Shown one piece after another: positions 15,672 to 60,592 of a stretch of DNA of 60,592 bases. The stretch covers positions 1-60,592 of the forward strand of contig CAYZBO010000005.1 of NCBI GenBank assembly GCA_964476665.1, given 5' to 3'. The stretch's first letter is position 1. Every line of letters begins with the position of its first letter. The notes beneath the pieces are model-generated. The model worked only from the letters and a program-made list of their open reading frames with translations. It was not told where the DNA came from and did not search any database. The stretch is from an uncultured Chryseobacterium sp. (lineage in GTDB: Bacteria; Bacteroidota; Bacteroidia; Flavobacteriales_F; PHOS-HE28). Position numbers and translations under genes: made by a program.

Positions 15672-15680
15672 ATTGTCCAT
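15672..15680. repeat. Left copy of the target-site duplication ATTGTCCAT
   Basis: An identical 9-mer directly abuts the other IS end at 17007..17015. Confidence 0.85.
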
Positions 15681-17006: not shown

Positions 17007-17015
17007 ATTGTCCAT
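17007..17015. repeat. Right copy of the target-site duplication ATTGTCCAT
   Basis: Matches 15672..15680 exactly. Confidence 0.85.
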
Positions 17016-31966: not shown

Positions 31967-31992
31967 TATCTTCCGCACAGCAAACGAGAACC

Positions 31993-34580: not shown

Positions 34581-34659
34581 GATGGGTCCAGGTTTTGCTC
34601 CCCGCAAACCAAGCCCCCCCTCCCCCCTCCCTCCTAGGTCCCTTTTCACCCCCCCGAGG

Positions 34660-34673
34660 CACGTAGTTTTCAC
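34660..34673 (+). promoter_or_regulatory. Degenerate copy (CACGTAGTTTTCAC) of the conserved intergenic motif core
   Basis: It shares CACGT-N-TTTTCAC with the three strong copies and lies 107 nt upstream of the ATG at 34780. The -7-like TAACCTTTG at 34700-34708 has a spacing 3 nt longer than in the others. Confidence 0.25.
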
Positions 34674-34779
34674 AGGGGGCGCGGCCTTCGCACCCCCCCT
34701 AACCTTTGTTCTATTGCCTTGGGGCCTGCGCCCGACTTAGGTTGCCGTGCCGTTCGCTTGCCCCGGACGGTATACGACC

Positions 34780-43266: not shown

Positions 43267-43274
43267 TCGCGGCC
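43033..43274 (+). repeat. 242-bp highly similar tract (3-prime end of the module plus 8 nt past the stop), copy 1
   Basis: Aligns to 52126..52367 at a constant offset of 9093 with few substitutions. The identity continues through TGATCGCGGCC. Confidence 0.85.
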
Positions 43275-43350
43275 TCTCCCCCGTTGATCGATGTACGCCG
43301 CCCGGCCCTTGTGGTCGGGCGGTGTGCGTGGGGGGGTGAGATCTCACCTG

Positions 43351-43374
43351 CCCGACCACGTCTTTTTCACCTGT
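43351..43374 (+). promoter_or_regulatory. Conserved intergenic motif CCCGACCACGTCTTTTTCACCTGT (copy 1)
   Basis: The same 24-mer, with 1-2 changes, occurs at 52383 and 59705. A -7-like TTCTTTCG ends at 43402, exactly 45 nt after the C of CACGT as in the other copies. The ATG is at 43406. Confidence 0.5.
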
Positions 43375-43405
43375 TGCAGGAGGGGGCACCCCGCTTCTTT
43401 CGCAG

Positions 43406-44029
43406 ATGATGCAAGCCAGGAACGGACCATCCATCCTCATCCTCAGCAACGAGCGCCTGTTCGCCGAGGGTTTGAAAGCCCTGCTGGAGCGTCGGCGGGG
43501 ATACGTGGTGGAGCTCATCACCACCATGGATGACCTGCTGCACCAGGTGCAGGAGCGCACCGCAGACCTGGTGCTGGTGGACCGGTCCCTGTTGCAGATG
43601 CACATCCTCCCCCTGGAGCGGATGCTGCGCAATGGACGGAGCACCGGGAAGTACATCGCCCTGTGCGCGAACCAGCAGGCAGGTCTCCTGCCAACGTGGA
43701 AGGAAATGGGCTATGCGGGAGCCGTCAAGCGCGGGGACAGCGCGGCCGACCTGTTCCGCACCGTGGAGGCCGTGCTTGCCGGCCGGGACCCGACACCTGC
43801 GGACAGCACCGCACACATGCACCCGAACGGGTCGTCCATGCCGCTTACACGCCGGGAAGCCGAAGTGGTGCTGCACCTGGCCAACGGGCTGTGCAGCCGC
43901 CTGATCGCGCTTCAGCTGGGGATCAGTCCCGCCACGGTGTTCACGCACCGGCGCAACATCGCCCGCAAGCTCGGCACGCGCAGTGCCGCCCACCTGATCA
44001 GCGAAGCACAGAACATGGGCCTCATCTGA
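43406..44029 (+). CDS. LuxR/NarL-family response regulator (atypical REC plus LuxR-type HTH)
   Basis: The C-terminal HTH is LTRREAEVVLHLANGLCSRLIALQLGISPATVFTHRRNIARKLG. The N-terminal REC-like domain has DLVLVD (a candidate phosphoacceptor) but SNE in place of the usual DD acidic pair. Confidence 0.85.
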   Translation: MMQARNGPSILILSNERLFAEGLKALLERRRGYVVELITTMDDLLHQVQERTADLVLVDRSLLQMHILPLERMLRNGRSTGKYIALCANQQAGLLPTWKEMGYAGAVKRGDSAADLFRTVEAVLAGRDPTPADSTAHMHPNGSSMPLTRREAEVVLHLANGLCSRLIALQLGISPATVFTHRRNIARKLGTRSAAHLISEAQNMGLI

Positions 44030-44316
44030 AACCGCCTTCCTGATGGAACGACCCGGCGCACCACAGCTCACCCCCGAACCATGAACGGATCGCTCCCCGC
44101 CCCCATGGTCGCTCTCATCAGCGCGTGCCGGACCGGGCCCCCTGTGGAGCATGCATGCATCCCAAGCGCTGCAGCTGCCGAACAGGCTCCTGCGGGCACG
44201 CACCATGCCCCGGCATGCGCGGACAAAAAAGCGGCCGCTGTAGTGCGCATACCTGAAACTGGGTATGCCTGATCATCTGAAGGACACCAATTTGCCCATC
44301 CCCAATTCATGCCAAC

Positions 44317-47300
44317 ATGACCCGTTCCTTGTTCCTGATCGCAGCGGTGGCCCTCGTGCTGGCCGGAAATGCCCAGACCAACGTCTCCGGCACCATTGCC
44401 AGCAACACCACCTGGACCACCACCGGCAGCCCTTACACCGTTACGGCCCAGCTCACCATCAACGCCGGGGTCACCCTCACCATCGACCCCGGGGTGCAGG
44501 TGCTGATGAACAGCACCAGCATCCAGGTGAACGGAACGCTCGATGCCGATGATGTGGATTTCGCAGCCAACGGTAGCCCCAACGGCTGGAACATCAGCGT
44601 GAACAACGGCGGGCTGGCCACGCTCACGGATTGCAGCATGGCGAACGGCAATCAGATCGGCGTGTCCGTCGGTGGCACTGCCACGTTGAGCGGCACCGGA
44701 CTCACGAACCTGGCCATCAATTCCGGGGGGACCATCAATATGACCGGTGGTGCTGTGACCAAACCGGGCAGCACCGCTGTGACCATTTCGGGCTCTGCCA
44801 CCTTCAATGGAACCTCCATCTCGAACAGCACCACAGCGGTTGCAGTGAACGCGGGTACGGCATCTTTCACCGGCGTTATCGTGGGTGCCAGCACCAATGC
44901 CTACACCCTCTCGGCTGGCACCACCACCATCCAGAGCCTCACCATCAGCGGCACCACCTACCCATTCACCTTCAATGGTCCCGCTGCGTTAGTGAACAAC
45001 GGTGGACACAGCATCAGCGGCAACACCTTCAATGTGGCCCGCACCGCCTTCAACACGCTGTCGACCAACTGGACAATGCCCTCGCTGCCCATCCCATGGT
45101 ACATGGAAAGCAGCAGCACGTTCACGGTGAACAGCGGCATCACATGGACCATCGCCTCCAACAACATCATCAAGCTGGGGGACAGCAAGCAGCTGGCCAT
45201 CAATGGCAAGGTGGTGGCCAACGCGGCCGCGGGTGAGAGCATCGTGTTCACCAGCTTCCGCGACGACAACCAGGGGGGCGACAGCAACGGCAACGGCTCG
45301 GGCAATGCGCCCAGCGTGGGCATCTGGCAGGGCCTGCGCTTCAGCAACCTGGCCGACCCCACCAGCTCCCTCACCCGCTGCACCTTCTTCTTCGCAGGCG
45401 AGTCCACCACCCGCGGCGCGGTGGACGTGAACACCATCGCCCCCAGCATCGTGGGCTGCACCTTCCAGCTGAACCGCTTCGGCATCACCCTGCGCAACGG
45501 CAGCCAGGCGCTGATCCAGGACTGCACCATCGGCAGCAGCACCAGCACCCCCATCGCCATGACGCTGGACTGCAACCCGCAGTTCGTGAACAACACCTTC
45601 TCCTTCATCGACAACCAATACGACGCCATCGGCATCCTCACCACCACGCTCACGGCGGACAACACGCTGGTGCAGCGCAATGTGACCGGCATCAACAACG
45701 TGACCTACGTGTTGCTTGGCACGATCGAGATCCCCGCAGGCCGCACGCTGAACATCGTGCCCGGCATCGTGATCAAGGCCACGAGCAGCCGCGACCTCAT
45801 GGTGGCCGGCACCCTGAACATGCTGGGCACCGCCGGGGAGCCGATCACCTTCACCAGCATCGCGGACGACAACGTGGGCAACCCGAACGACACCAACAAG
45901 GATGGCAACCTGAGCCTGCCTACCACTGCTGCGAACAGGCCTGGTGGCATCGGCATCAATACCGGAGCCACGGTGGCCCTGGAGCATGTGAACCTGAGGT
46001 TCTGCTCTTCGAGTACAACGGTCTTTGGCGTTGGATCATGGAGCCCCTTCATCAATTCTTGGATGGTCTTCGACCTCGGCGGAAGCGTCAGCTTGCAGAA
46101 CTGCCTGCTCAGCGATGGCACCTACGGCTACCAAGGCTCCGAGACCTCGGCCGCGGTCTTCACCAACGTCACCTTCCAGAACCTGTCGCAGGCACCCATC
46201 TCCATCCAGGCGCCGGCCAACCCCAGCTTCACCAACGTGGCCTTCACCAACGTGGGCCTGCGTGCACTGGGCATCCTGGGCGGCACCATCACCGTGAACG
46301 GATCGCTGCAGCAGCGCACCCTCGCGGGCTTCACCAACATCACGCAGGTGCTGTTGGGCAACCTTACCGTGGCGGCCGGCACCTACCTGGAGGTGCAACC
46401 CGGCGTGGTGTTGAAGGTAGGGCAGAGCGCAAGTTCCATTGAGGTGAACGGTGGCTTCCGCCTTTTTGGGACCGCAGGGCAACCAGTGGTGATCACCGAC
46501 TGGCGCGATGATGCCTACGGCAATCCGGCCGACACCAACGAGGATGGAGGCAACACAAGCCCGAACCCGGGCAACTGGGTCGGTATCCGGTACAATGCCG
46601 CGGCCGATGATGCTTACAATTCTGTGCAACACACGATCATCCGCTTTGCGGGGCAGGGGAGTTGTGATGCGGGTGCACGGGGGGCGGTAACCTACGTGAA
46701 TGCTGGCGGCACGATGAACAACAGCACCATCAGCAGCGGCATGTTCGGTCTGGTCTTCATCGGCAACTCGGACCCCGCCATCAGCACCATCAGTATCGAC
46801 AACTGCCGGATCGATGCCTTCGCGCAGTCCTGGGAAGCCACTCCGGCATTGAACAACATCAGCCTGGGCAATCAGAACGGCAGCAATGGGATCCGCCTGC
46901 TCAACGCCACCATCACCAGCGACCTCACCATCGGTCCCGGCTTCATCAACGGGGTGGGACCGGTGAGCTACCTATCCTCTGAACTCACGGTCGCCACTGG
47001 AGCGACCCTCACCATCCTGCCCGGGACTAACTTCAAATGGGGATCGCAGAACTACCCCAACTGGAGTTCCTGTGGATCGTCTTGTGTGTACTGGACCATC
47101 AATGGCGCCTTGGTCGCGGTGGGCACTTCGGGCCAACCCATCGTCTTCACTTCCTTCAAGGACGATTCGGTGGACGGGGATACCAATAACGACGGCAACT
47201 CTTCGACCCCCCAGGCAACCGATGGTACCAGAATAGTCTTTACGAGCACGTCCAATGCGGCATTGAACCAACTTCGACATTGCCAGTTGAGGTATTCTTC

Positions 47301-49785
47301 GTACGGTTGTGGAGGAGACGACGATCACGGTGTCATTCAGTTCCACAGCAGCGGTGGCATGGTCCAGGACTGCATCATTGATCTCACGCAATACGCAGCA
47401 TTCCATTTCCGGGGAAGCGCCAACCCCACTGTCCAGAACAACTTCATCAACAATGTCCTGTCCGATGCTCCTGTGTTGATGAGCGCGTTCGCCAACCCCA
47501 CGCTGCTGAACAATACGATAAGCAATGTGAGCACGTTCGCGATCAGGTTAAGAAGGGAGACGTGGAGCACCAGTGGAACGATACCCTTGAGGGCACTGGG
47601 GGGATACTATCCCATTCCCTATGTTGTCAATCAAAGCTTTTTCGGGTCGTCCTTTGAAATAACCAACAACGCGGTCATAACCATTCAACCCGGCACTGTG
47701 TTCAAGAGCGGAGGTTACACCATGTTCCGTGTGCAGAACGGAGGTAGACTGATGGTCGAAGGAACAGCCTCGGAACCGGTGGTATTCACGTCGATAAACG
47801 ATGATTCTGAGGGCTCTTTGGGGGACACCAATCAGGATGGCAATGCAACATCACCAAGCATCCTTGGTGCGAATGGTCACATTACGTTCGAGGGTACCAG
47901 CGATGACCTGAGCAGGATCGAACATGCACGCTTCAAGTTCATGGAAAAGCCGATCGTCTCCATCAATGCTCGGCCACGGATCCGCAACAGCAGCTTCCAG
48001 AGCTGCACCTATGGCATCGAAGCACGTGGTACCGAAGGCCCCTTCATGCCCTACAACACCTTCCACGACCTGAGCCAGACGCCGGTGCTCACCTCCATCC
48101 TGAGCATACCGGACAGCCTGATGGGCAACGTGATGACCGGGACCACCAAGAAGATGTTGCAATTGGATTCGGAAACCCTGTTGCAGGACCGCACCCTGCA
48201 CAAGCTGGATTTCGGCGATGTGAGCAATATCCCCTACTACATCGACGGTACTTTCACGGTGGGCACCAACGCCAACCTGAGCATTGCACCCGGTGTGCGG
48301 ATGAAGTTCGGCAGCGGTGGCCGCCTGGTGGTGAACCGCGGCCTGCTGGCCCTGGGTGGCCCCACACCGGACAGCCTGATCGTATTCACCCACGAGGCGG
48401 ACGACTTCTACGGCGGTGACAGCAACAGCAACGGGCCGGGTGCGGTGCCCAGCGGTGGCTGGCAGGGCATCACCTTCGAGAACGCAGCGGTGGACCCATC
48501 CTGTCTGCTGGACCACTGCGTGATCCGCTACGCCAACAGCAGTACCTACGGCGGGGTGCGCTGCAACAGTGCATCGCCCACCATCACCAATACCCGCTTC
48601 CAATTCTGCCACAGTGGTGTGCGCGCCGAGGGGGTGAGCAACCCGCTGGTGAACTGGTGCGACTTCCAGAGCCTCACTACGCAAGGGGTGAACAACGTGA
48701 GCCAGAACTTCAACATCAACGCGGAGAACTGCTACTGGGGCCACCCCAGCGGTCCCACGCACAGCGGCAACCCCGGCGGCACGGGCGTAAGCGTGACCAA
48801 CCAGGTGGACTACCTGCCCTTCCAGACCGGTCCCAACGCGCCACTGATGGGCGATGTGAGCCTGAACGGCACGGTGACGGCCTTCGATGCCTCACTGGTG
48901 CTGCAGAGCACGGTGAACCTGATCACCCTGAGCCCCCAGCAGGAGCTGGTGGCCGAGGTGAGCGGCAACGGCACGGTGACGGCCTTCGACGCCTCGCTGA
49001 TCCTGCAGTACACCGTGGGGCTCATCGACAACTTCCCGGTGACGCAGAACATAGGTGGTGGTGGCGGTGGCGGCATGCAGCAGATGAAGCTGCTCACCGA
49101 GCCGGCCACCCTGCTGCTGCCCAGCGTACAGGTGGCACCGGGCGACACCTTCTTCGTGGACGTGCTGCTGGGCGATGTGGCGAGCCTGCTGAGCCTGGAG
49201 GCCACCCTGGGCTACGATGCCGGCCTGCTGGAGCTGCTGGAGGTGGAGCCCCTGCTGCCGCTTTCCTTCAGCGCGCTGCATGCCACGCCCAGCCCGGGCA
49301 TCCTGATGCTCTCGGCGGCTTCGGCCTTCCCGCTCACCAGCGATGCGGCCGCGTTCCGCCTGCACTTCGTGGCCAACGCCACCGTGACGGAGAGCACCGC
49401 CAGCCTGCTGGACCCGCTGGTGGTGATCCTGGATGAGCAGGATGCCACGGCGCAGGCCCTGGCCGGCGAGGTGCTCATCACGCCCGGCATCACCACGAGC
49501 ATCATCGACGCATCCTCCCTGCCGCCCCTGGGCATCTACCCGAACCCCAGCACCGATGGCTTCACCGTGGTGTGGAGCGGTGCCACGGCGGGCGAAGCGG
49601 TGGAACTGCAGCTCTTCGACAACGCCGGTCGCATGGTATATGCCCTGCGCACCATGCCCGCACAGGGCAGCCGTGGCGTGGAGCTGCGGGTGGAGCGCGG
49701 CGCACTGGGCGGTGTGAGCGGCCTGCTCTTCGTGCGCTTGGCGCAGGGTGCGAACGTGGTGTGGGACCGGGTGGTGCTCCAGTAA
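44317..49785 (+). CDS. Giant secreted parallel beta-helix repeat protein with a dockerin module, a cohesin-like module and a T9SS type A sorting domain
   Basis: Signal peptide MTRSLFLIAAVALVLAGNAQ. There are many repeats of the pattern (V/I).F.G......I.N....G... and DD..G(D/N)(S/T)N.DG segments. See the sub-features for the C-terminal modules. Confidence 0.9.
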   Translation: MTRSLFLIAAVALVLAGNAQTNVSGTIASNTTWTTTGSPYTVTAQLTINAGVTLTIDPGVQVLMNSTSIQVNGTLDADDVDFAANGSPNGWNISVNNGGLATLTDCSMANGNQIGVSVGGTATLSGTGLTNLAINSGGTINMTGGAVTKPGSTAVTISGSATFNGTSISNSTTAVAVNAGTASFTGVIVGASTNAYTLSAGTTTIQSLTISGTTYPFTFNGPAALVNNGGHSISGNTFNVARTAFNTLSTNWTMPSLPIPWYMESSSTFTVNSGITWTIASNNIIKLGDSKQLAINGKVVANAAAGESIVFTSFRDDNQGGDSNGNGSGNAPSVGIWQGLRFSNLADPTSSLTRCTFFFAGESTTRGAVDVNTIAPSIVGCTFQLNRFGITLRNGSQALIQDCTIGSSTSTPIAMTLDCNPQFVNNTFSFIDNQYDAIGILTTTLTADNTLVQRNVTGINNVTYVLLGTIEIPAGRTLNIVPGIVIKATSSRDLMVAGTLNMLGTAGEPITFTSIADDNVGNPNDTNKDGNLSLPTTAANRPGGIGINTGATVALEHVNLRFCSSSTTVFGVGSWSPFINSWMVFDLGGSVSLQNCLLSDGTYGYQGSETSAAVFTNVTFQNLSQAPISIQAPANPSFTNVAFTNVGLRALGILGGTITVNGSLQQRTLAGFTNITQVLLGNLTVAAGTYLEVQPGVVLKVGQSASSIEVNGGFRLFGTAGQPVVITDWRDDAYGNPADTNEDGGNTSPNPGNWVGIRYNAAADDAYNSVQHTIIRFAGQGSCDAGARGAVTYVNAGGTMNNSTISSGMFGLVFIGNSDPAISTISIDNCRIDAFAQSWEATPALNNISLGNQNGSNGIRLLNATITSDLTIGPGFINGVGPVSYLSSELTVATGATLTILPGTNFKWGSQNYPNWSSCGSSCVYWTINGALVAVGTSGQPIVFTSFKDDSVDGDTNNDGNSSTPQATDGTRIVFTSTSNAALNQLRHCQLRYSSYGCGGDDDHGVIQFHSSGGMVQDCIIDLTQYAAFHFRGSANPTVQNNFINNVLSDAPVLMSAFANPTLLNNTISNVSTFAIRLRRETWSTSGTIPLRALGGYYPIPYVVNQSFFGSSFEITNNAVITIQPGTVFKSGGYTMFRVQNGGRLMVEGTASEPVVFTSINDDSEGSLGDTNQDGNATSPSILGANGHITFEGTSDDLSRIEHARFKFMEKPIVSINARPRIRNSSFQSCTYGIEARGTEGPFMPYNTFHDLSQTPVLTSILSIPDSLMGNVMTGTTKKMLQLDSETLLQDRTLHKLDFGDVSNIPYYIDGTFTVGTNANLSIAPGVRMKFGSGGRLVVNRGLLALGGPTPDSLIVFTHEADDFYGGDSNSNGPGAVPSGGWQGITFENAAVDPSCLLDHCVIRYANSSTYGGVRCNSASPTITNTRFQFCHSGVRAEGVSNPLVNWCDFQSLTTQGVNNVSQNFNINAENCYWGHPSGPTHSGNPGGTGVSVTNQVDYLPFQTGPNAPLMGDVSLNGTVTAFDASLVLQSTVNLITLSPQQELVAEVSGNGTVTAFDASLILQYTVGLIDNFPVTQNIGGGGGGGMQQMKLLTEPATLLLPSVQVAPGDTFFVDVLLGDVASLLSLEATLGYDAGLLELLEVEPLLPLSFSALHATPSPGILMLSAASAFPLTSDAAAFRLHFVANATVTESTASLLDPLVVILDEQDATAQALAGEVLITPGITTSIIDASSLPPLGIYPNPSTDGFTVVWSGATAGEAVELQLFDNAGRMVYALRTMPAQGSRGVELRVERGALGGVSGLLFVRLAQGANVVWDRVVLQ
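48850..49041 (+). other. Dockerin type I-like module (two EF-hand-like segments)
   Basis: GDVSLNGTVTAFDASLVLQSTV and EVSGNGTVTAFDASLILQYTVG both fit the D/E-x-S-x-N-G-x-V-x-x-x-D calcium loop followed by a helix. Confidence 0.75.
49087..49488 (+). other. Cohesin-like module
   Basis: LLLPSVQVAPGDTFFVDVLLGDVASLLSLEATLGYDAGLLELLEVE...AAFRLHFVANATVTES fits the cohesin pattern. It is separated from the dockerin by a Gly7 linker and followed by a T9SS tail (49528..49782: LGIYPNPSTDGFTVVW...LLFVRLAQGANVVWDRVVLQ). Confidence 0.6.
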
Positions 49786-49809
49786 GGCACGGCCACAACA
49801 GCCCCTGCC

Positions 49810-52359: not shown

Positions 52360-52367
52360 TCGCGGCC
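52126..52367 (+). repeat. 242-bp highly similar tract, copy 2
   Basis: See 43033..43274. Confidence 0.85.
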
Positions 52368-52382
52368 ACCAGGAACACATGA

Positions 52383-52407
52383 CCCGACCACGTCTTTTTC
52401 ACCTTGT
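52383..52407 (+). promoter_or_regulatory. Conserved intergenic motif CCCGACCACGTCTTTTTCACCTTGT (copy 2), with a downstream -7-like TTGATTTG
   Basis: CACGT starts at 52389 and TTGATTTG is at 52427-52434, so it ends at +45. TTG at 52404-52406 gives a 20-nt spacer. The downstream CDS starts at 52540. Confidence 0.5.
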
Positions 52408-52539
52408 CATGGCCCGCTCCTGCATGTTGATTTGTCCCGCTGTGAACGCCGTACCACCCACCGCATGCCGCTCCCGCGGTACGCATGGATGATGCGGAGC
52501 GCACCGCACCCGAAGTAGAACGTTCAACCTCCCTTGGAA

Positions 52540-55038
52540 ATGTTCCGCAACACGACCCCGCAACGCCTCGGCCGCCTCTCCCTTCCTGCGCTGCTGGCCA
52601 CCCTCGGCGCCCTCTTCGGCCCGGAGGCGAGCCACGCCCAGCGGGTGCTGCCCTTCGGAGAAGGCAGCACAGGAGGCTTGGGCGCGTATGACATGATCGT
52701 GCACGAGGACCGGCTCTACGTCGCCGGGCTCTACACCTCCTTCCTGGGCAACCCCCGCCGCAACATCCAGGCGTGGGATGGAAGCACCTTCCACGACCTG
52801 CCGGGCGCCTTCACCAACGCACCCCAACGCGTGCGCGACCTGGCGGTGTTCAACGGTGAGGTGATCGCCACGGGGAACGAAGCCACGTTCGGACACGTGG
52901 CGCGCTGGGACGGTGCTGCCTGGCAGACCATGGGCAGCGGCCTGGCCGCACAAGGCCGCGCGCTCTGCATCCACAACAACGAACTCTACGCGGCCGCGAA
53001 CGATGGTTCCGTGAGCCGGTGGGACGGCGGCGCCTGGCAGCCCGTGGGGGCGGCCTTCAACGGGGCCGTGGCTTCCCTGGAGTCGCACAACGGCGCGTTG
53101 TACGCCGGCGGCGCGTTCGACTTCGATGTGGACTCCACCCAGCAATTGCGGCGGCTGGTGCGATGGACCGGTGCCGTCTGGGAGGAAGTGGGCACCGGCT
53201 TGAACGCATCCGTGTCCGACATGCTATCCACCCCCGAGGGTCTCGTGGTGACCGGCTCCTTCAGCACCGCAGGCGACGGCACCCTGCAACTGCCCCGGTG
53301 GACGGTCTATGATGGCGCCACGTTCTCACAGCCTACGGACTCCATTCCAGGTACGCAGATCGAAGCCGTATGCGCGCATCCCGATGGCGGCATCCTGCTC
53401 GGCAACAGCTCTGCTGCGCTTTGGGTGAACAACAACGAGGTGCGCGCCATCCGCTACCGATCGCTGCGCGCGGCAGTCAACTTCGGCGGCGAACGGCTGA
53501 TCGGTGGCTTGAGCAGTATCTCCTACTCCGATGTGGGCATTGTGGGTCGCCTGCTGGATGGCAACGACCTGGACCACCTGAACGTGAACCAGCTTAAAGC
53601 CGACGCCACCCCGTCCACGAACCTGTTCTTCGACCCGTGGAATAACAGGCCAGGATTCGAAGCGCCACAGGGTAGCGGGGTGTATGCCATCTACTCCGCT
53701 TCTCCTTGGGTCACCGGCTTCCACAACGGTACGATGCACAGCGCGGCCCCCACCTACGACAACCAACCCGCACCCACTGCGGGGCCGCACGCTGCGGTGA
53801 TGGATGCCGATTTCTACGAGCGCTACTACCAGGTATGGAAGCTGGACCAGGCCACCATCGCCCAGCATGCCCAGCAATGGGACCAGAGCGGCTATGTGAT
53901 GCCGTATGCCATCACCACCTGGCCGGGCAATGGCAATGTGGACAACGGCGAGCCGGCCCGGTTGGCGCCCTTCAAGGACCTGGACAACGACGGGCTGTAT
54001 GAACCAGCCAGCGGCGAATACCCCTTGATCCGCGGCGACCAGGCCGTCTATTTCATCCTCCACAGCGAGCAGGATGCCGACAGCCTACATCCGCCCATGC
54101 AGTTGGACCTGCATGTGATGCACTACGCCTACAACACGGCGGGCAATGCGGACCTGCAGCACACGGTCTTCACCAACTACCGCATCGTGAACCGCGGCGA
54201 CCTGGACTTTACCGGCGTTCGCTTTGGCGCCTTCACCGACATGGATCTGGGCTATGACAGCGATGATCTTGCCGGCTGCGATTCGCTGCTCGGGCTGTTC
54301 TTCAACTACAACGGCGATGGGCTGGATGAGCCCGGCTTCGGGTCGCCCGGTTATGGTGCGAACATACCCGCACAGGGCGTGCTCTTCCTGAACCAGGCCA
54401 TGAGCGCGCACAACGCCATTTGTCGTTCAGCGGGCTTCGTTACCCCTTTGGAGGATGCAATCTATGGCACCTTTCAAGGAGCCCCCTTCGCCCAACCCTT
54501 GAGCCCACTGGACCACCCCACACACTTCGAGTACCCAGGCGGGGCATGGGTGGACCAACTCAACAGCTGCTCCGGTCGGTATGCCGTGGGCTCCTCCGGT
54601 CCCTTCACGCTCAACGCCGGCGACACCTTGTGCGTGGACCTGGCCTACCCCTGGGCACGTGCGGCCAGCGGCGATCCGCTGGAAAGCCTGGAAGCGCTCC
54701 GCACCCGGGCGCAGGCGGTGAAGAACTGGTACCAGGCCCAGGCCTGGGATTGCGGGGAGGTGGAGGACATCATCACCCGCCTCGATGATATGGGCAGCAC
54801 AACCGGGCTGAAACTCCATCCCAATCCGGCGAACAGCTGGGTGGTGGTGGAGCGCGGTGAATGGAATGGCCCAGCGAGATTCCACTTGATGGATGTCTCG
54901 GGCCGTTCATTGCTGGACCAAAGCGGCAACGGGCCATCGGTGACGCTTGATCTGGCCGGCATCGCCCCCGGCAGCTACCTCGTGGTGGTGGACGATGGCA
55001 CACAGCGCCACACCCGCACCCTGGTGATCACCCACTGA
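52540..55038 (+). CDS. Secreted protein with N-terminal Kelch/propeller-like repeats and a T9SS type A sorting domain
   Basis: ATG at 52540 gives MFRNTTPQRLGRLSLPALLATLGALFGPEASHAQ. The (R/A)WDG.(A/T)W...G motif is repeated. The C-terminus is LKLHPNPANSWVVVERG...GSYLVVVDDGTQRHTRTLVITH. The track start at 52534 is a TTG. Confidence 0.85.
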   Translation: MFRNTTPQRLGRLSLPALLATLGALFGPEASHAQRVLPFGEGSTGGLGAYDMIVHEDRLYVAGLYTSFLGNPRRNIQAWDGSTFHDLPGAFTNAPQRVRDLAVFNGEVIATGNEATFGHVARWDGAAWQTMGSGLAAQGRALCIHNNELYAAANDGSVSRWDGGAWQPVGAAFNGAVASLESHNGALYAGGAFDFDVDSTQQLRRLVRWTGAVWEEVGTGLNASVSDMLSTPEGLVVTGSFSTAGDGTLQLPRWTVYDGATFSQPTDSIPGTQIEAVCAHPDGGILLGNSSAALWVNNNEVRAIRYRSLRAAVNFGGERLIGGLSSISYSDVGIVGRLLDGNDLDHLNVNQLKADATPSTNLFFDPWNNRPGFEAPQGSGVYAIYSASPWVTGFHNGTMHSAAPTYDNQPAPTAGPHAAVMDADFYERYYQVWKLDQATIAQHAQQWDQSGYVMPYAITTWPGNGNVDNGEPARLAPFKDLDNDGLYEPASGEYPLIRGDQAVYFILHSEQDADSLHPPMQLDLHVMHYAYNTAGNADLQHTVFTNYRIVNRGDLDFTGVRFGAFTDMDLGYDSDDLAGCDSLLGLFFNYNGDGLDEPGFGSPGYGANIPAQGVLFLNQAMSAHNAICRSAGFVTPLEDAIYGTFQGAPFAQPLSPLDHPTHFEYPGGAWVDQLNSCSGRYAVGSSGPFTLNAGDTLCVDLAYPWARAASGDPLESLEALRTRAQAVKNWYQAQAWDCGEVEDIITRLDDMGSTTGLKLHPNPANSWVVVERGEWNGPARFHLMDVSGRSLLDQSGNGPSVTLDLAGIAPGSYLVVVDDGTQRHTRTLVITH

Positions 55039-55056
55039 CACAAGATCCCGGCACCC

Positions 55057-57576
55057 ATGTTCCGCCTTGCCCGCCTGCTTGCCTCCTGCACTGCCTTCGT
55101 CGCCATGTCCGATGTGCTGCCGCAGTGCACCAGTTGGTGCGTGAACACCGGCACCGCATACATCAGCCAAACGCCTTCCTGTTTTGGCGAGAGCTACGCG
55201 ATCACCATCGCTGGTGAGTATAGCTGGAACAGTTGGTCGGGAGGGACCAGCGGGACATTCAGCATTGGCCCGGGTACCTACACCATCCAGTTCATCAGCA
55301 ACTGCTACACCCAGACACCCTACCAGTATTGCTGTCAGCAGTGCTACGATGAGTTGGGGAACCTGTACTGCTGCCTATCCTGCACCGCCTGCGAACAATA
55401 CAACTACACCAGCGAGCACAGCGTCACCATCATCATACCCGAGTATCCCTGCACCATGGACGGTAGCGCCGCAGGGCACGCACCATCCGTGTTCGGGTGC
55501 AGTGATGGCTCCATTACCTATAGCGGCACCACCAATGCCTGCAACGGTTTCTTGGTCTATGGACCCAATGGATGGCAGGGGCAAGGCAATGGCACCATCA
55601 CCGGGCTCGCGGCGGGCCAATACACGTTGTACTTCTACAGCGATCCCGGGGGCTGTTACGATGAGGTGCTCGTCACCGTGCCCTCCGGCCCCTGCACGCT
55701 CAGTGCCGCCATTTCCGCCGAGGATGCCTCCAGCACTGTCTGCGCGGATGGCTCCATATCCGTGACCGGGAACTCCGGGACCTGCCTCCCATGGTCCCTC
55801 TGGATAAGCCGGGACGGCACGGAACAGTTCTGGGGGAGCTTTGCGGATGGCGAGACCGTCACGATCCCGTCGCTGCTGCCCGGCAACTATTCCGTGGGCC
55901 TTGAGCACAGCGATGGGGAGGGCACCTGCCAGCAGCAGTACCCGGTCAGCATCACCTCACCCGGCTGCCTCTTCCCCTTCACCACCGCCACCGTGGAAGC
56001 AACCGCCGGTGGTGCCTGTGCCGATGGGCGCATCGTGCTCACCAACAACACCGGCTGCGACCAACTGGTGAGCATCCATGCTGCGGATAGCACCACCTTG
56101 ATCGGCACGTACTGGCATTCCTGGTATGCGAACGATACCGTGCCCGCCCTCTTCAACGCCGGCACCTACTTGGTGCGGGCGTTCAGTCAGGCCTACGACC
56201 CCTTCACACAACAGACCATTACATGCGACCAATGGAGCAGCGTGGTGGTGGGTGAACCCTGCCAGCTGGATGCCTCGGCATGGACCACGGCGCCCTCCAG
56301 CCTGGCCTGTTCGGATGGGTCCATCCACCTTACCAGCGCGATGGGCGGCTGTTTCCAGCAGCAGGCACAGCTCTATCGCCTTGGGGGACCATCCCCTGTT
56401 CAGAACGCGCAGGCGGAACAGGGCGACACCATCCGGTTCTCGGAATTGATGCCCGGCACCTACGTGCTCCACACCCAGCAGTTCCCCTGGATGCCGGGGG
56501 GATGCGAACAACGGGACACCCTCACCGTGGCCAATCCCGGCTGCCTCTTCCCCTTCACCACCGCCACCGTGGAAGCAACCGCCGGTGGTGCCTGTGCCGA
56601 TGGGCGCATCGTGCTCACCAACAACACCGGCTGCGACCAACTGGTGAGCATCCATGCTGCGGATAGCACCACCTTGATCGGCACGTACTGGCATTCCTGG
56701 TATGCGAACGATACCGTGCCCGCCCTCTTCAACGCCGGCACCTACTTGGTGCGGGCGTTCAGTCAGGCCTACGACCCCTTCACACAACAGACCATTACAT
56801 GCGACCAATGGAGCAGCGTGGTGGTGAACTGCGCGGCGCAGGTCTCGCTCAGCGGTCGCGTATTGTTGGAGGGACCGTACGACCCAGGCAGTGGCCTGAT
56901 GCATGATCACCTGCGCATCGCCGATCTGATCCCTGCTACGGAACCATACACGGCCCTGGGCCACGTGGACGTTGCTACAGACGGCTCGGTCGGCCCCAGC
57001 GTGTTCGCCACGACGGGGAACAACGCCATCGTGGACTGGGTGCTGCTGGAACTGCGGGACCCCACCGATCCCGCGCTCATCCGGGCCAGCCGTGCGGCAC
57101 TGGTGCAGCGCGATGGGGACCTGGTGGCAGAGGACGGCTTCTCCCCTGTTCCCTTGCCCCTGCCAGCGGGATCATACCTGGTGGCCGTGCACCATCGCAA
57201 CCACCTGGGGTGCATGACCGCCCAAGCGGTCGCCATGGACCTCCAACCCGTTCCGGTTGACTTCACCAGCCCCGCGCTGATCACCCACGGCACCGATGCC
57301 CGCAGGGCCCATGGCAGTACCATGCTCCTGTGGGCCGGCGATGTGGACCACAACAAGGTGGTGCGCTACACCGGCCCGGCCAATGACCGGGACCCCTTGC
57401 TGCAGACCATCGGTGGCGCCGTGCCCACGGCCACGCTCACCGGCCAATACAGGGCTGAGGACGTGAACCTCGACGGTGAGGTCAAGTACGTGGGGCCCGC
57501 GAACGACCGCGACCCCATCCTGCAAAGCATCGGTGGCACCACCCCCACCGCCACGCGAACAGCACACGTACCGTGA
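55057..57576 (+). CDS. Cys-rich SprB-repeat-like surface protein ending in the shared C-terminal module
   Basis: Repeated ~90-aa units each begin with a C.DGSI/C.DGRI motif (GCSDGSITYSG, VCADGSISVTG, ACADGRIVLTN, ACSDGSIHLTS), which resembles SprB repeats. The gap to the upstream gene is 18 nt. Confidence 0.85.
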   Translation: MFRLARLLASCTAFVAMSDVLPQCTSWCVNTGTAYISQTPSCFGESYAITIAGEYSWNSWSGGTSGTFSIGPGTYTIQFISNCYTQTPYQYCCQQCYDELGNLYCCLSCTACEQYNYTSEHSVTIIIPEYPCTMDGSAAGHAPSVFGCSDGSITYSGTTNACNGFLVYGPNGWQGQGNGTITGLAAGQYTLYFYSDPGGCYDEVLVTVPSGPCTLSAAISAEDASSTVCADGSISVTGNSGTCLPWSLWISRDGTEQFWGSFADGETVTIPSLLPGNYSVGLEHSDGEGTCQQQYPVSITSPGCLFPFTTATVEATAGGACADGRIVLTNNTGCDQLVSIHAADSTTLIGTYWHSWYANDTVPALFNAGTYLVRAFSQAYDPFTQQTITCDQWSSVVVGEPCQLDASAWTTAPSSLACSDGSIHLTSAMGGCFQQQAQLYRLGGPSPVQNAQAEQGDTIRFSELMPGTYVLHTQQFPWMPGGCEQRDTLTVANPGCLFPFTTATVEATAGGACADGRIVLTNNTGCDQLVSIHAADSTTLIGTYWHSWYANDTVPALFNAGTYLVRAFSQAYDPFTQQTITCDQWSSVVVNCAAQVSLSGRVLLEGPYDPGSGLMHDHLRIADLIPATEPYTALGHVDVATDGSVGPSVFATTGNNAIVDWVLLELRDPTDPALIRASRAALVQRDGDLVAEDGFSPVPLPLPAGSYLVAVHHRNHLGCMTAQAVAMDLQPVPVDFTSPALITHGTDARRAHGSTMLLWAGDVDHNKVVRYTGPANDRDPLLQTIGGAVPTATLTGQYRAEDVNLDGEVKYVGPANDRDPILQSIGGTTPTATRTAHVP
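55960..56250 (+). repeat. Perfect 291-bp direct repeat, copy 1
   Basis: Compared base by base by eye with 56536..56826 (offset 576); I found no difference. Confidence 0.9.
56536..56826 (+). repeat. Perfect 291-bp direct repeat, copy 2
   Basis: See 55960..56250. Confidence 0.9.
56857..57573 (+). other. Shared C-terminal module, copy C (most divergent)
   Basis: RVLLEGPY...DLIPATEPYTALGH...AIVDWVLLELR...ALVQRDGDLVAEDG...LVAVHHRNHLGCMT...GDVDHNKVVRYTGPANDRDPLLQTIGG...DVNLDGEVKYVGPANDRDPILQSIGG. Confidence 0.85.
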
Positions 57577-57660
57577 ACGCCACGGCTGTGCACTGCTGCC
57601 CACCTATAAGACCCCGCACTGAACCCCTGCTTTCACAACACACGCAACACCCACACACCC

Positions 57661-58206
57661 ATGAAGACCTACCCCAACCCCGCTTTCGCACTGGCGCTCG
57701 CAGCAGCCCTTTTCGCTGGCTGCACCAAGGAGGACAAGGAAGCCCTTGCCTTGGAGGCCGAACTGCTCATGCAGTACAATGCCATTGAGCTCACCGTGGA
57801 GCCCGGCACCTACGACGGGACCGTTGAGTTCGCCCTGAGCTTCAACGGACAGGAACTGCAGGACCTGTTGAGCCGCAACGGCTACAGCATGGAGCAGCTG
57901 CAGGAGTTCCAGTTCACCAAGGCCGAGCTGCGCATCCTCACCCCTGAGGAGCAGACCTTCGACGTGGTGGATGCCGTGGCCATGAAGCTGGCGCTGGGAG
58001 GGACGAACGACCGGACCATCGCCGCGCTCGATCCGGTGCCCGACGGCGTGCGCGAGGCGCTGCTGGTGCTCAATGAAGTGAACGTGGCCGACATCCTGCG
58101 CAATGACCAGGCTTCGCTGAAGCTGACGGCCAACATGAGCGGGGAGCTCACCGAGCCGGTGCTCCTGCGCGCCGACCTGGGCGGCCGGGTGGTGGTGCGT
58201 CCCTAA
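57661..58206 (+). CDS. Hypothetical lipoprotein
   Basis: MKTYPNPAFALALAAALFAGC has the lipobox FAGC. There is no recognisable domain. Confidence 0.65.
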   Translation: MKTYPNPAFALALAAALFAGCTKEDKEALALEAELLMQYNAIELTVEPGTYDGTVEFALSFNGQELQDLLSRNGYSMEQLQEFQFTKAELRILTPEEQTFDVVDAVAMKLALGGTNDRTIAALDPVPDGVREALLVLNEVNVADILRNDQASLKLTANMSGELTEPVLLRADLGGRVVVRP

Positions 58207-58226
58207 GGGTAGCAGCTGCACCTGCC

Positions 58227-59633
58227 ATGCGAGCCATGAAGGAGGCCTGGGCGCTGCTGATCGGCCTGCTGGCGCCGGGCCTCCTTGCCGTGCAGGCCCA
58301 GTACGGCGTGGGCATCGCCGGCGGCACCTGGGAGGGCGTCTGGGGCGTGGCGGCCCAGCCTGCCGCCCTGATGCTGAACCCCGACCGCGCGGAGATCAAC
58401 CTCTTCCGCGTGGGGGCCGACCTGGACAACAGCTACCTCTTCCTGGGCCGTGAAGAGCTCGGGCTCTTCGGCTTCGGCCGTCGCATCCGCGTGGATACCG
58501 CGCGCCTCGAGCTGGGGGCCTCCTCCCTGGACCGCGAGCGCGCGGTATCCATGGACGCGCGGTTCATGGGGCCTTCCTTCTCCCTGCGCCTGGGCGACCG
58601 CCATGCCGTGGCCTTCAGCAACAGCGTGCGTGTGGCGTTCACCGCGCTGGACCTGGACGACCTGGCACGCAAATTCGGCATCGACACCATCACGGTGGAG
58701 AACGGACGCCCCCGGCGGGTGAGCGAGGCGACCATCCGCGCCAGCGCCCTGAGCTGGACCGAACACGCCCTCAGCTATGCACGCACCATCCCGCTGGGGC
58801 CGGGCCGGCGGCTGCACCTGGGCATCTCCGCCAAGTACCTCCTGGGCATCTACGCGCTCTCGGTGGAGAACGAGGCCCCGCTGCTGAGCGCCCTGAACGA
58901 CTCCGTGGTGGGCGTGAGCGAGGTGAACCTGCGCTATGCCGCGGTGACCCTGGCCGACGATCCGTGGAAGGGTGGCCTGCCGGGCCTGGTCCATGGACAT
59001 GGCTGGGGCATGGACGCCGGTGTGATCTACGAGGTGGTGCCCGTGCTGGACTCCAGTGGCACCACGGCACCGGGCAGGCACGCCCTGCGCCTGGCCGCAT
59101 CGGTCACCGATGTGGGCCACATCCACTTCACGCGCGAAGCCCACCGGTACGCCATCCGCGATGGCCGCACCACGGTGCCCGCCCTCGAGGACTTCTCCGT
59201 GGGTAGCGCGAGCCAGCTGGACACCGCCCTCAGCTCCCTGCTCCTGGGCAGCCCCTACGCCTCCCGCCAGGCTGCCGGCTTCCGACAGTACCTGCCCACA
59301 GCGCTCCATGCCAGTGCGGATTACAGCCCGGTGAAAGGCTTCGCCCTGCGCCTGGCGGTGGTCACCGAGCTCGTCTCCCCCACCCGCGGGCCGGCCGTGC
59401 GCGAACAGTTGAGCCTGACGCCGCGCTTCGAAACGCGCAACTTCTGCGCCGCGCTCCCAGTGAGCATCGACGCCTTTGGCAACTGGGGCTTCGGTGCCAT
59501 GCTGCGCGTGGGCGGATTCATGATCGGCACCGACCGCATCGGAGGGCTCTTCGGGGTGAACGACCTGCGCGGCGCGGACCTGTACTTCGGGGCGAAAGTG
59601 CGCCTGAAGGGACGCACAGCAGCGCACCGGTGA
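58227..59633 (+). CDS. Putative outer-membrane beta-barrel protein (function unknown)
   Basis: Signal peptide MRAMKEAWALLIGLLAPGLLAVQAQ. The sequence has an alternating hydrophobic beta-strand pattern and Gly/aromatic-rich segments (HGWGMDAGVIYEV, GFGAMLRVGGFMIGTD, DLYFGAKVRL). The family assignment (DUF5723 or PorP/SprF-like) is not established. Confidence 0.65.
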   Translation: MRAMKEAWALLIGLLAPGLLAVQAQYGVGIAGGTWEGVWGVAAQPAALMLNPDRAEINLFRVGADLDNSYLFLGREELGLFGFGRRIRVDTARLELGASSLDRERAVSMDARFMGPSFSLRLGDRHAVAFSNSVRVAFTALDLDDLARKFGIDTITVENGRPRRVSEATIRASALSWTEHALSYARTIPLGPGRRLHLGISAKYLLGIYALSVENEAPLLSALNDSVVGVSEVNLRYAAVTLADDPWKGGLPGLVHGHGWGMDAGVIYEVVPVLDSSGTTAPGRHALRLAASVTDVGHIHFTREAHRYAIRDGRTTVPALEDFSVGSASQLDTALSSLLLGSPYASRQAAGFRQYLPTALHASADYSPVKGFALRLAVVTELVSPTRGPAVREQLSLTPRFETRNFCAALPVSIDAFGNWGFGAMLRVGGFMIGTDRIGGLFGVNDLRGADLYFGAKVRLKGRTAAHR

Positions 59634-59704
59634 ACGGCCCCTCCGCGTGGGTGGCCCTGCACTACCCACCAGCCCGGTCCTCCACCCGGGTACTATTCAC
59701 AGTC

Positions 59705-59728
59705 CCCGACCACGTATTTTTCACCTGT
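59705..59728 (+). promoter_or_regulatory. Conserved intergenic motif CCCGACCACGTATTTTTCACCTGT (copy 3), with a downstream -7-like TTGATTTG
   Basis: CACGT starts at 59711 and TTGATTTG is at 59749-59756, ending at +45 as in copy 2. The ATG at 59778 is 22 nt downstream. Confidence 0.5.
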
Positions 59729-59777
59729 GGGGACACCCGTAGCCACCGTTGATTTGCCCCCGAACAACACCAAAGCC

Positions 59778-60584
59778 ATGTCACAACGATCTTCCCAGTC
59801 CGGCACAAGCTCCCTGCTGACACGCCGCGCGAAGTTGTATCGCGGGTCAGAACTGACTCAAGCGAACGGGGTCTTCAAAAGGCAATTCAAGCTCAACAAG
59901 CCCGGCGATCTCACGAACGACCCGAAAGACCTGGAGGGGACTTCCGTAAAGATCAGCTTGGGATCGATCGAAGGCGTGGAGGCCGCCCTGCTGGGCAGGT
60001 ATGGCGCTCACGTACGGGGCATCTATTTCGACTATGGCATAAGTGGGATGGATTTCTGCCCGGTGGTTCGCTTCATGTTCCCAGACTTCACAGCCAAGGG
60101 GGATCTAAAGCTGTTCGAAGAGCGATACAAGGTGGTCGGTTCTGACCTGGTGGAGATCACCGCTTCGGCTGCGAATGATCTCACAGCCCTTTATCAGGAA
60201 AGGATCCGCATATTCCCAACGGACACCACCACACACAGGGCCCACGCAAACCATGGTACCTACCCCGACCCACAGGCCGAGTGGTTCGCCTACGCCGACA
60301 ACGTGAATAAACTGATCACGGACAACATCCAGCAACAGGCAGCTGATACAACGCTCCCGCCAGTGAAGCACTTGGTGGTCACCTGTATCTCTGAAGTGCT
60401 GGAATATGGGGCGATGGCACTGCATGGTGCAGGGCCCGAATACCGGCACATGCTCGCGCTTCATACAGCTACCGAAAATGGTGACCTGTTAGGTACAACA
60501 ACGATACCTCCCTCCGGAAGTTATGCCGGTCTCGCCATGGACCTCGGCCACCTCTGCCCGCCGCGCTGCAAGAAGGTGTTGTGA
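59778..60584 (+). CDS. Hypothetical cytoplasmic protein (268 aa)
   Basis: I preferred the ATG at 59778 (MSQRSSQSGTSS) over the GTG at 59727, which overlaps the motif. There is no signal peptide and no recognisable domain. GC appears lower than in the neighbours. Confidence 0.55.
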   Translation: MSQRSSQSGTSSLLTRRAKLYRGSELTQANGVFKRQFKLNKPGDLTNDPKDLEGTSVKISLGSIEGVEAALLGRYGAHVRGIYFDYGISGMDFCPVVRFMFPDFTAKGDLKLFEERYKVVGSDLVEITASAANDLTALYQERIRIFPTDTTTHRAHANHGTYPDPQAEWFAYADNVNKLITDNIQQQAADTTLPPVKHLVVTCISEVLEYGAMALHGAGPEYRHMLALHTATENGDLLGTTTIPPSGSYAGLAMDLGHLCPPRCKKVL

Positions 60585-60592
60585 ACGCGGCC

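Follow-up and report, generated by a model that had tools for sequence, protein, structure and literature searches.

Motif copies and promoter-like architecture in the window

The DNA analysed here is a stretch of 60,592 nucleotides (hereafter the window) from contig CAYZBO010000005.1 of an uncultured Chryseobacterium sp. (assembly GCA_964476665.1), and the element in question is a 24-bp intergenic motif that recurs in it upstream of several genes. An earlier reading of the letters without database searches (the sequence-only reading) had reported this motif at 43351, 52383 and 59705 on the plus strand, each time between genes. A pattern search of the window gave exactly these three matches, all on the plus strand and all between open reading frames (ORFs), and none of 100 dinucleotide-preserving shuffles contained any match to the 24-mer. 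A position weight matrix (PWM), built from the motif instances collected in the window and in its relatives, confirmed a fourth, degenerate copy at 34660 that the same reading had proposed upstream of a giant gene for an S8 peptidase with MopE repeats (34747-43266). The four sites scored 25–31 bits and all other window positions 10.9 bits or less, with 0–5 hits of at least 9 bits in shuffled windows. A partial copy claimed at 436-444 scored 10.2 bits, which is within the chance level of the shuffled windows, and could not be upheld. The four copies of the 60.6-kb window are all intergenic and all co-oriented with the downstream gene. The sites and their associated features are as follows.

34660-34676, plus strand: motif copy 4, CACGTAGTTTTCACAGG (CACGTAGTTTTCAC at 34660), PWM 24.8 bits, with a distal TTTTCAC at 34643-34649
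43298-43322, plus strand: hairpin CCGCCCGGCC-CTTGT-GGTCGGGCGG with a 10-bp stem, past the giant gene's stop codon
43335-43348, no strand: perfect 14-bp palindrome GGTGAGATCTCACC at the distal-box position of copy 1
43351-43374, plus strand: motif copy 1 (core 43357-43373), no mismatches, PWM 29.9 bits
43395-43402, plus strand: -7-like box of copy 1, TTCTTTCG, predicted transcription start near 43407
52383-52406, plus strand: motif copy 2 (core CACGTCTTTTTCACCTT at 52389-52405), PWM 28.4 bits
52427-52434, plus strand: -7-like box of copy 2, TTGATTTG, predicted start near 52439, giving a 5' untranslated region (UTR) of ~100 nt
59693-59700, plus strand: distal box of copy 3, CTATTCAC, ~24 bp before the TTTTCAC in the core
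59705-59728, plus strand: motif copy 3 (17-bp core CACGTATTTTTCACCTG at 59711-59727), no mismatches, PWM 31.0 bits
59749-59756, plus strand: -7-like box of copy 3, TTGATTTG, putative start near 59761

Copy 2 carries one mismatch, at its last base (CACCTTG versus CACCT[G/T]T). Copies 1 and 2 are not fully independent of each other, since each comes after a gene end of 276 bp, and these two ends are paralogous, with 86% identity. Around copy 4 (34600-34710 compared with L145 2360-2470, a locus of the related metagenome-assembled genome (MAG) AC1.1, GCA_041391845.1), the lengths of poly-C and poly-G runs differ, for example 7 C versus 8 C before GAGG, so copy 4 and the downstream TAACCTTTG are not a fixed distance apart.

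In each of copies 1–3, counting from the C of CACGT, a T-rich octamer ends at exactly 45 nt, as had been claimed from the letters, and lies 21 bp past the core. The G+C content of the window is mostly 53–68%, and TTnnTTTG occurs in it only four times on both strands, two of the four being the boxes of copies 2 and 3. The only intergenic TAnnTTTG of the window (16974) is found at the right end of an insertion sequence (IS) element, before a 1968-aa gene at 17004. In the transcription start map of Flavobacterium psychrophilum, the sigma-A box TAnnTTTG occupies -12 to -5 and the median 5' UTR is 24 nt (PMC9723704). Because the octamers were placed at -12 to -5 as in that map, the 24-mer is predicted to lie at about -56 to -33, with the centre of the 17-mer at ~-42 and the distal box at ~-66. 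This predicted geometry is that of a class II activator-dependent promoter, the end of the operator occupying the place of the -33 element. For copy 1, a start near 43407 would yield a leaderless or nearly leaderless mRNA. Scans for sigma-70 promoters and intrinsic terminators did not rise above shuffles. The hairpin at 43298-43322, which is conserved upstream of the motif in L133–L137 and in AC1.1, looks terminator-like though it has no T run. The palindrome at the distal-box position of copy 1 is likewise present in AC1.1 (L014/L145).

The sequence-only reading had described the motif as a direct repeat of CACGT and CACCT; both elements are literally there, but only the CAC of the second is conserved across relatives. 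The core appears to be better read as an imperfect inverted repeat, CACGT-N7-ACCTG, whose arms match at 4 of 5 positions, accompanied by the distal (A/T)TTCAC.

Conservation and synteny with a two-component operon

Relatives were sought in three ways. A scan of a genome collection with GACCACGTNTTTTTCACC listed mostly matches in coding sequence (DHVFFT in aminotransferases and acetyltransferases), the relevant ones among those listed being only L014 (AC1.1) and L025, both Flavobacteriales MAGs; L131 was the only relevant match in a scan of Joint Genome Institute (JGI) metagenomes. The family of the protein encoded after copy 3 (protein A) was then found by profile search, and the contigs encoding its members were compared. 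Copy 3, which precedes gene A, is the ancestral-type copy. Core, spacing and box were found before orthologues of gene A in ~12 other Flavobacteriales genomes or metagenome contigs. The core is identical before the orthologues in L025, L131, L138 and L143, where the proteins are only 23–42% identical; among L025, L131 and copy 3 the genes after the motif are homologous, with proteins only 23–29% identical. In L138–L140 and L143 the called gene start lies too far upstream, so that the motif is hidden within the called ORF.

The architecture before genes of the protein A family runs from a distal (A/T)TTCAC through ~10 nt, the core, a 21-nt spacer, the box and a leader to the ATG. The consensus of the core is CACGT[A/C]TTTTTCAC[C]TG and that of the box TT[G/A/C]NTT[T/C]G. 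The distal (A/T)TTCAC recurs at its offset in most orthologous promoters, and the leaders between box and ATG are A/C-rich and 19–25 nt long. Only the 17-mer and the octamer have high information content; it is weaker in the distal box and absent from the spacer. Apart from L147, the box TTnnTT(T/C)G stands at the fixed offset in all promoters of the A operon examined, as it does in copies 1 and 2. The composite pattern CACGTMTTTTTCAC-N24-TTNNTTYG was present in every relevant related locus and in 0 of ~115 chance loci from the genome scan. In MAG GCA_025455765.1 (L135 470-540) a stretch of ~33 nt with the -7 box and leader (gagggatggtgTTGTTTTGcctcatccaaaaacg) stands twice in tandem, against once in the JGI contigs L136 and L137, which are nearly identical to L135.

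In two divergent orthologues the same position is taken by variants: the perfect inverted repeat CCCGTG-TTTTTT-CACGGG in L141 and L142, and CACGTATTAATCAC in L144, where CACGTATTAATACGTG, a palindrome without mismatch over its 16 bp, lies 24 bp upstream. A paralogous operon of L132 carries CCCGTATTAATACGGG and, after it, CCCGTGAAAAGTACGGG; here CCCGTATTAATACGGG and CCCGT-N7-ACGGG are perfect palindromes.

Copy 4 is kept before the orthologous giant gene in AC1.1 (L145:2415), and a copy-4-like site lies at the corresponding position in L134 (1818), neither with a box at +45. A 22-kb stretch of the complete genome CP129489.1 (L147) contains the motif three times: before an operon orthologous to that of gene A, before the orthologue of the first gene after copy 2 (L147:9889), and on the opposite strand before a gene of 306 aa. 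At L147:9889 the core CACGTCTTTTTCACCTT and the 21-nt spacing are those of copy 2, and the downstream protein is 76% identical to the product of the copy 2 gene. Next come orthologues of the window's 181-aa protein (here 179 aa) and DUF5723 protein, beside the two-component operon. In L150, which has a more distantly related orthologue of the copy 2 gene and no two-component system near it, no motif was found. At L147 8236-8300 there is another operator-like palindrome, TTCACAG-N7-CTGTGAA, followed by a TTGCTTCG box and preceding the genes of 294 and 213 aa located after the regulator in CP129489.1; from this palindrome, TTCAC may be the basic half-site of this regulator family. A further strain, in sludge metagenome X9, has a motif of the copy 3 type (compared with window 59705-59739) in a different upstream context, ...GATGGTATTTATTCACAGT, with the distal TTATTCAC box kept. 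The X9 context was taken from Logan contigs compared with an 86-nt motif region, an insensitive method by which contigs of copies 1 and 2 were not recovered.

In every locus that is long enough (L132, L133, L135, L139, L141, L145, L146 and L147), the motif is followed by the same four genes, coding for protein A, a protein B, a HisKA_3 histidine kinase (HK) and a GerE response regulator (RR); we refer to them as the A-B-HK-RR operon. A second regulator gene of the same broad type, the orphan regulator, directly follows copy 1. The two genes concerned in the window are:

43406-44029, plus strand: orphan NarL/LuxR-type regulator with Response_reg and GerE domains and an atypical receiver N-terminus (SNE instead of the acidic DD)
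59778-60584, plus strand: gene A (268 aa), first gene of A-B-HK-RR, the remainder lying past the window end (60592)

Protein A has no Pfam or NCBIfam match and no signal peptide, and ends in an invariant C-terminal CPPxC. Its family comprises 313 clusters at 50% identity, with no annotation. An AlphaFold2 model (mean per-residue confidence, pLDDT, 85; predicted template modelling (TM) score, pTM, 0.85) had no significant fold match in the PDB, the best being weak matches to double-hotdog thioesterases with a TM-score of ~0.13. Protein B (~215 aa) has five predicted transmembrane helices and no known domain in Pfam or NCBIfam. The kinase (HisKA_3/HATPase, ~257 aa) has a single N-terminal transmembrane helix, and the regulator (Response_reg and GerE, ~225 aa) has NarL, VraR and DevR as its closest solved relatives. 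No equivalog cut-off of NCBIfam was reached. In the comparison of AC1.1 with CP129489.1, identity is highest for the regulator (73%), followed by the kinase (54%), protein B (52%) and protein A (34%); the near-invariance of the putative operator is thus mirrored by the regulator and not by the first gene. The regulators that go with the main motif have the recognition helix HRRTVDN[Y/F/H]RI[S/A/N/G]LFEKF, and two regulators paired with the CCCGT-type variants have TVDG[F/Y]R[Q/E][G/A], differences that would fit co-variation of regulator and operator.

The regulator of the A-B-HK-RR operon is the likeliest cognate protein, favoured by synteny and predicted to bind the motif. The LuxR link made in the sequence-only reading therefore holds in part: an operon with a GerE regulator does follow the motif, but the likely partner is not the product of 43406, to which that reading had pointed. 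The orphan regulator is only distantly related to the operon regulator and had no homologue above 33% identity among 5.8 billion proteins. Since SNE replaces the DD pair in its receiver, it may act independently of phosphorylation.

A candidate activator-dependent promoter and the protein that may bind it

With moderate confidence, we regard the motif as the operator part of a conserved activator-dependent promoter in a regulon of a NarL/LuxR-type two-component system. The proposal of an activator-type signal upstream of -7-like boxes, serving a small LuxR-linked regulon, had already been made from the letters, and it gains from the conservation of motif, spacing and box before kinase–regulator operons in ~12 genomes. 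The signal is of an ordinary kind and this one is previously undescribed; the 13-mer ACGTATTTTTCAC gave one match only in the literature, which was unrelated.

In the mechanism that we propose, the distal (A/T)TTCAC, the proximal 17-bp imperfect inverted repeat, the 21-bp spacer and the sigma-A-type -7 box would together constitute a promoter-operator, whose proximal site, centred at ~-42, would overlap the missing -33 element. The ancestral copy would drive the operon of protein A, the five-helix membrane protein B, the HisKA_3 kinase and the NarL/LuxR (GerE) regulator. Once phosphorylated, the regulator would occupy the site, probably in dimeric form, with the distal box taking a second dimer or serving as a half-site, and would recruit RNA polymerase and so autoregulate its own operon. 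The same regulator would co-regulate neighbouring operons for secreted proteins or surface proteins of the type IX secretion system (T9SS). Two further motif-bearing operons, one headed by the orphan LuxR-type regulator and the other by a T9SS protein, lie in a 16.35-kb insertion, described below, that separates the giant protease gene from the A operon.

Several points weigh against this interpretation. The binding protein and the sign of regulation are ones that we infer, and the transcription starts and the -42 position are predictions. The spacer before gene A in CP129489.1 is 22 bp, not 21, and copy 4, L134a and the third site of CP129489.1 have no -7-like box at +45. Position 2 of the box is T in every copy, as against A in the Bacteroidota consensus TAnnTTTG, and the -33 TTTG element expected 19–21 bp upstream of the box is absent, its place being taken by CCTG or CTTG of the operator. 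In its main form the 17-mer is no perfect palindrome and contains an oriented T tract, and the core and distal box could alternatively be direct repeats of TTCAC with a period of 23–24 bp. The link between recognition helix and motif compares two variant with six main sequences and is confounded by phylogeny. The motif census covers the window and related loci (~200 kb of relevant sequence).

The proposed arrangement has counterparts in known systems. LuxR activates the luxI promoter in class II fashion from the lux box, an inverted repeat of 20 bp with its centre at ~-42.5, and the tra box of TraR is similar. There and, as predicted, also here a helix-turn-helix (GerE) activator is paired with an inverted-repeat operator that lies over or replaces the upstream hexamer of a promoter without a good upstream element, with the centre predicted at ~-42 in our case, where position and binding are both predicted. 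The differences are that the regulator here is of the NarL type with a phospho-receiver, whereas that of lux binds an autoinducer, and that the site here is 17 bp long and imperfect, with an oriented T tract, a second distal box and a Bacteroidota -7 promoter.

LiaFSR and VraSR are autoregulated three-component systems of the cell envelope in Firmicutes. They share with the A-B-HK-RR operon a minimal-sensing HisKA_3 kinase with one transmembrane helix, a NarL-family regulator, a membrane-protein gene just before the kinase gene and an operator before the first gene of the operon, which would imply positive autoregulation. They differ in that B has five transmembrane helices and no LiaF or other domain, in the presence here of the uncharacterised cytoplasmic protein A, and in phylum and promoter type. 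NarL and NarP recognise TACYYMT heptamers in a 7-2-7 arrangement; the regulator family and, on the present reading, paired half-sites and several sites per promoter are common to both, but here 5-bp arms of another sequence surround a 7-bp T-rich spacer. In Clostridium perfringens the LytTR regulator VirR binds two direct repeats just upstream of -35, which we note as a lead only. Two direct-repeat boxes ending in ...T(T)CAC just upstream of the core promoter are a likeness to VirR, where spacing is critical, while the period of 23–24 bp, the inconsistent synteny of a LytTR gene and the palindromic variants set the present motif apart. Relative to the Bacteroidota sigma-A promoter (-33 TTTG/-7 TAnnTTTG; PMC9723704), the octamers agree in ending in TTTG 19–25 nt before the start codon and in their A/C-rich leaders without a Shine-Dalgarno sequence, and differ by T at octamer position 2 and by an operator in the -33 place.

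It is possible, though we think it unlikely, that the promoter-operator is as described and another protein binds it, the candidates being the orphan regulator 43406, the LytTR response regulator (31963-32748) and an unlinked transcription factor. For a LytTR protein the TTCAC boxes, distal and proximal, would act as direct repeats, and they do recur directly 23–24 bp apart. The LytTR gene lies ~2 kb upstream of copy 4 both here and in AC1.1, and in L138 a LytS-type kinase and a response regulator adjoin the operon. The VirR boxes of LytTR regulators (CCCAGTTNTNCAC) end in TNCAC, again a lead only. Yet synteny of the LytTR regulator, which the sequence-only reading had put forward for binding tests, with the motif is inconsistent across relatives: no LytTR gene was called in the motif-bearing L132, L133, L135, L141 and L147, and no LytTR domain could be detected in the neighbouring regulator of L138. 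The usual period of LytTR sites is ~21–22 bp, as against 23–24 bp here, and the arrangement of two ~9-bp direct repeats with a spacer of 12–13 bp was not found. The palindromic variants better suit a GerE dimer. As to the orphan regulator, copy 1 immediately precedes its gene, but the protein is without close homologues whereas the motif is widespread.

That the conserved block is instead a promoter element of an alternative sigma factor, for example of the extracytoplasmic function (ECF) type, and not an activator site, seems to us improbable. The missing -33 TTTG and the departure from TAnnTTTG at position 2 in all copies would be expected of such an element, and flavobacteria do have the non-sigma-A motifs SM4-6 (PMC9723704). 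However, the downstream box is of the sigma-A type (TnnnTTTG) at the predicted sigma-A position and does not match the CGT of an ECF -10 element. The gap between the -35 and -10 elements of ECF promoters is shorter than 21–24 bp, so that the 21–24 bp from the motif to the box are too long for such a pair. No genes for sigma or anti-sigma factors are syntenic with the motif in the related loci, and the dyad symmetry of the site, perfect in the variants, also speaks against an alternative-sigma element.

The 16.35-kb segment and the candidate regulon

Copies 1 and 3 bound a segment, found at 43375-59728 (16,354 bp, no strand), that contains copy 2. AC1.1 (L014) matches window positions 41425-43374 at 99.1% and 59705-60592 at 93.6%; since the two matches overlap on the 24-mer, the 16,354 bp are absent from AC1.1, with the junction inside the 24-mer. 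The segment is also absent from L146 and L133–L137, where giant gene, hairpin, motif and gene A follow one another, and this short arrangement is most simply taken as the ancestral state. The long arrangement is not an artefact of assembly, because Logan contigs of three independent studies span copies 1, 2 and 3 in it. No recombinase domain was found by Pfam in the segment or its flanks, the only transposase gene (15694-16863) being 26 kb away. In four metagenomes, no excision joint at the motif was among the best-supported joints listed, beyond which there were 22 less-supported joints. We read the segment, from these comparisons, as a homology-assisted gain or exchange of modules with the same promoter, not as the product of a dedicated recombination site.

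One might go further and suppose that the motif promoters are both regulator sites and preferred recombination joints, by which operons would be gained, lost or reordered as promoter-bounded, pre-wired modules. We consider this doubtful. It is suggested because the junction of the 16.35-kb insertion of two operons lies exactly inside the 24-mer, and because the A-B-HK-RR module and the module of T9SS protein, lipoprotein and DUF5723 protein are ordered differently in CP129489.1.

A motif that is solely a recombination or mobile-element site (att-like, a cassette boundary, or a fragment of a repetitive extragenic palindromic (REP) element or a miniature inverted-repeat transposable element (MITE)), at which gene modules are inserted, is a very improbable explanation. 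The missing 16,354 bp with their junction inside the 24-mer, the different order of modules in CP129489.1 with motifs at the module starts, and short inverted repeats flanking copies 2 and 3 (p about 0.01–0.02 each) can be cited for it. They are outweighed by ~12 genomes in which the orthologous promoter has the motif and no insertion is present, and by two properties of promoters, the strict distance between motif and -7 box and the shared orientation of motif and genes. In addition, there is no recombinase or transposase in or beside the segment, the flanking inverted repeats are missing in most instances, no excision joint at the motif appeared among the best-supported joints listed in four metagenomes, and the composite pattern was not found in viral contigs. 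The 86% identical, 276-bp paralogous gene ends before copies 1 and 2 can themselves drive homologous recombination.

A dispersed repeat (REP or MITE), the outcome that the sequence-only reading had set against its own proposal, was dropped for the ~200 kb of relevant sequence examined, in which the window has four copies, all intergenic and co-oriented with the downstream gene, and related loci have 2–3 copies per 20 kb. A hairpin or cruciform as a general feature was also rejected: short inverted repeats of differing sequence flank all four window copies, but such repeats reach p<0.05 against shuffled flanks in only 3 of 14 instances.

That the motif belongs to a structured RNA, such as a small RNA, a 5' leader or a 3' UTR element, in which a hairpin loop would contain the conserved sequence, is hardly credible and already largely refuted: copies 1–3 can be drawn within the stems CCTGC/GCAGG, CATGAC/GTCATG and GTCCCC/GGGGAC, but these all differ and are missing in most orthologues, RNAalifold gave no consensus pairs over 14 instances, single folds were no more stable than shuffles except for the minus strand of copy 2 (z-score -2.23; 4 of 200 shuffles as good), Rfam gave no match at gathering thresholds, and transcription is predicted to start only downstream of the motif.

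Under the preferred reading of an activator-dependent promoter, the genes downstream of the copies are candidate targets. These genes and their neighbours in the window are:

31963-32748, plus strand: LytTR response regulator (Pfam)
32901-34673, minus strand: gene between the LytTR gene and copy 4
34747-43266, plus strand: giant gene, S8 peptidase of 2839 aa with 14 MopE repeats (Pfam), downstream of copy 4
44317-49785, plus strand: 1822-aa protein with beta-helix, dockerin and T9SS C-terminal domain (CTD), downstream of the orphan regulator
49810-52359, plus strand: 849-aa cohesin/Big_2 protein, downstream of the orphan regulator
52540-55038, plus strand: T9SS-CTD protein (Pfam), first gene after copy 2
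55057-57576, plus strand: 839-aa protein with a shared C-terminal repeat, copy 2 module
57661-58206, plus strand: 181-aa lipoprotein-like protein, copy 2 module
58227-59633, plus strand: DUF5723 protein, copy 2 module

The genes for the 2839-, 849- and 839-aa proteins end in the same tandem pair of ~116-nt modules (43022-43254, 52115-52347 and 57329-57564), which encode a dockerin- or EF-hand-like C-terminus (...DVNMDG...DPILQTVGG...) distinct from the Pfam T9SS sorting domain. Elsewhere in the window, the IS element (15672-17015) has 27-bp terminal inverted repeats that are 89% complementary and encodes a transposase of 389 aa (DDE_Tnp_1/DUF4372; minus strand, 15694-16863). Within positions 1-250 a 21-nt unit is present in eight tandem copies, inside or before an ORF at 20-1108, and at 6931-7623 three tandem repeats of 231 nt, 72–84% identical, lie in a minus-strand gene of 1090 aa (6403-9675).

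Almost nothing is known about the transcriptional wiring of uncultured, high-GC Flavobacteriales of activated sludge. The motif would provide a concrete regulon with a defined operator, a predicted class II geometry on a Bacteroidota -7 promoter and a candidate NarL-type two-component system with two uncharacterised partners, proteins A and B. Its candidate targets are genes for large proteins that are secreted or placed on the surface by the T9SS, namely the S8 protease with MopE repeats, the beta-helix, cohesin and dockerin-like proteins and the DUF5723 protein. The kind of mechanism is ordinary, and the value of the finding lies in the annotation and in the precise site and protein that it offers to experimenters.

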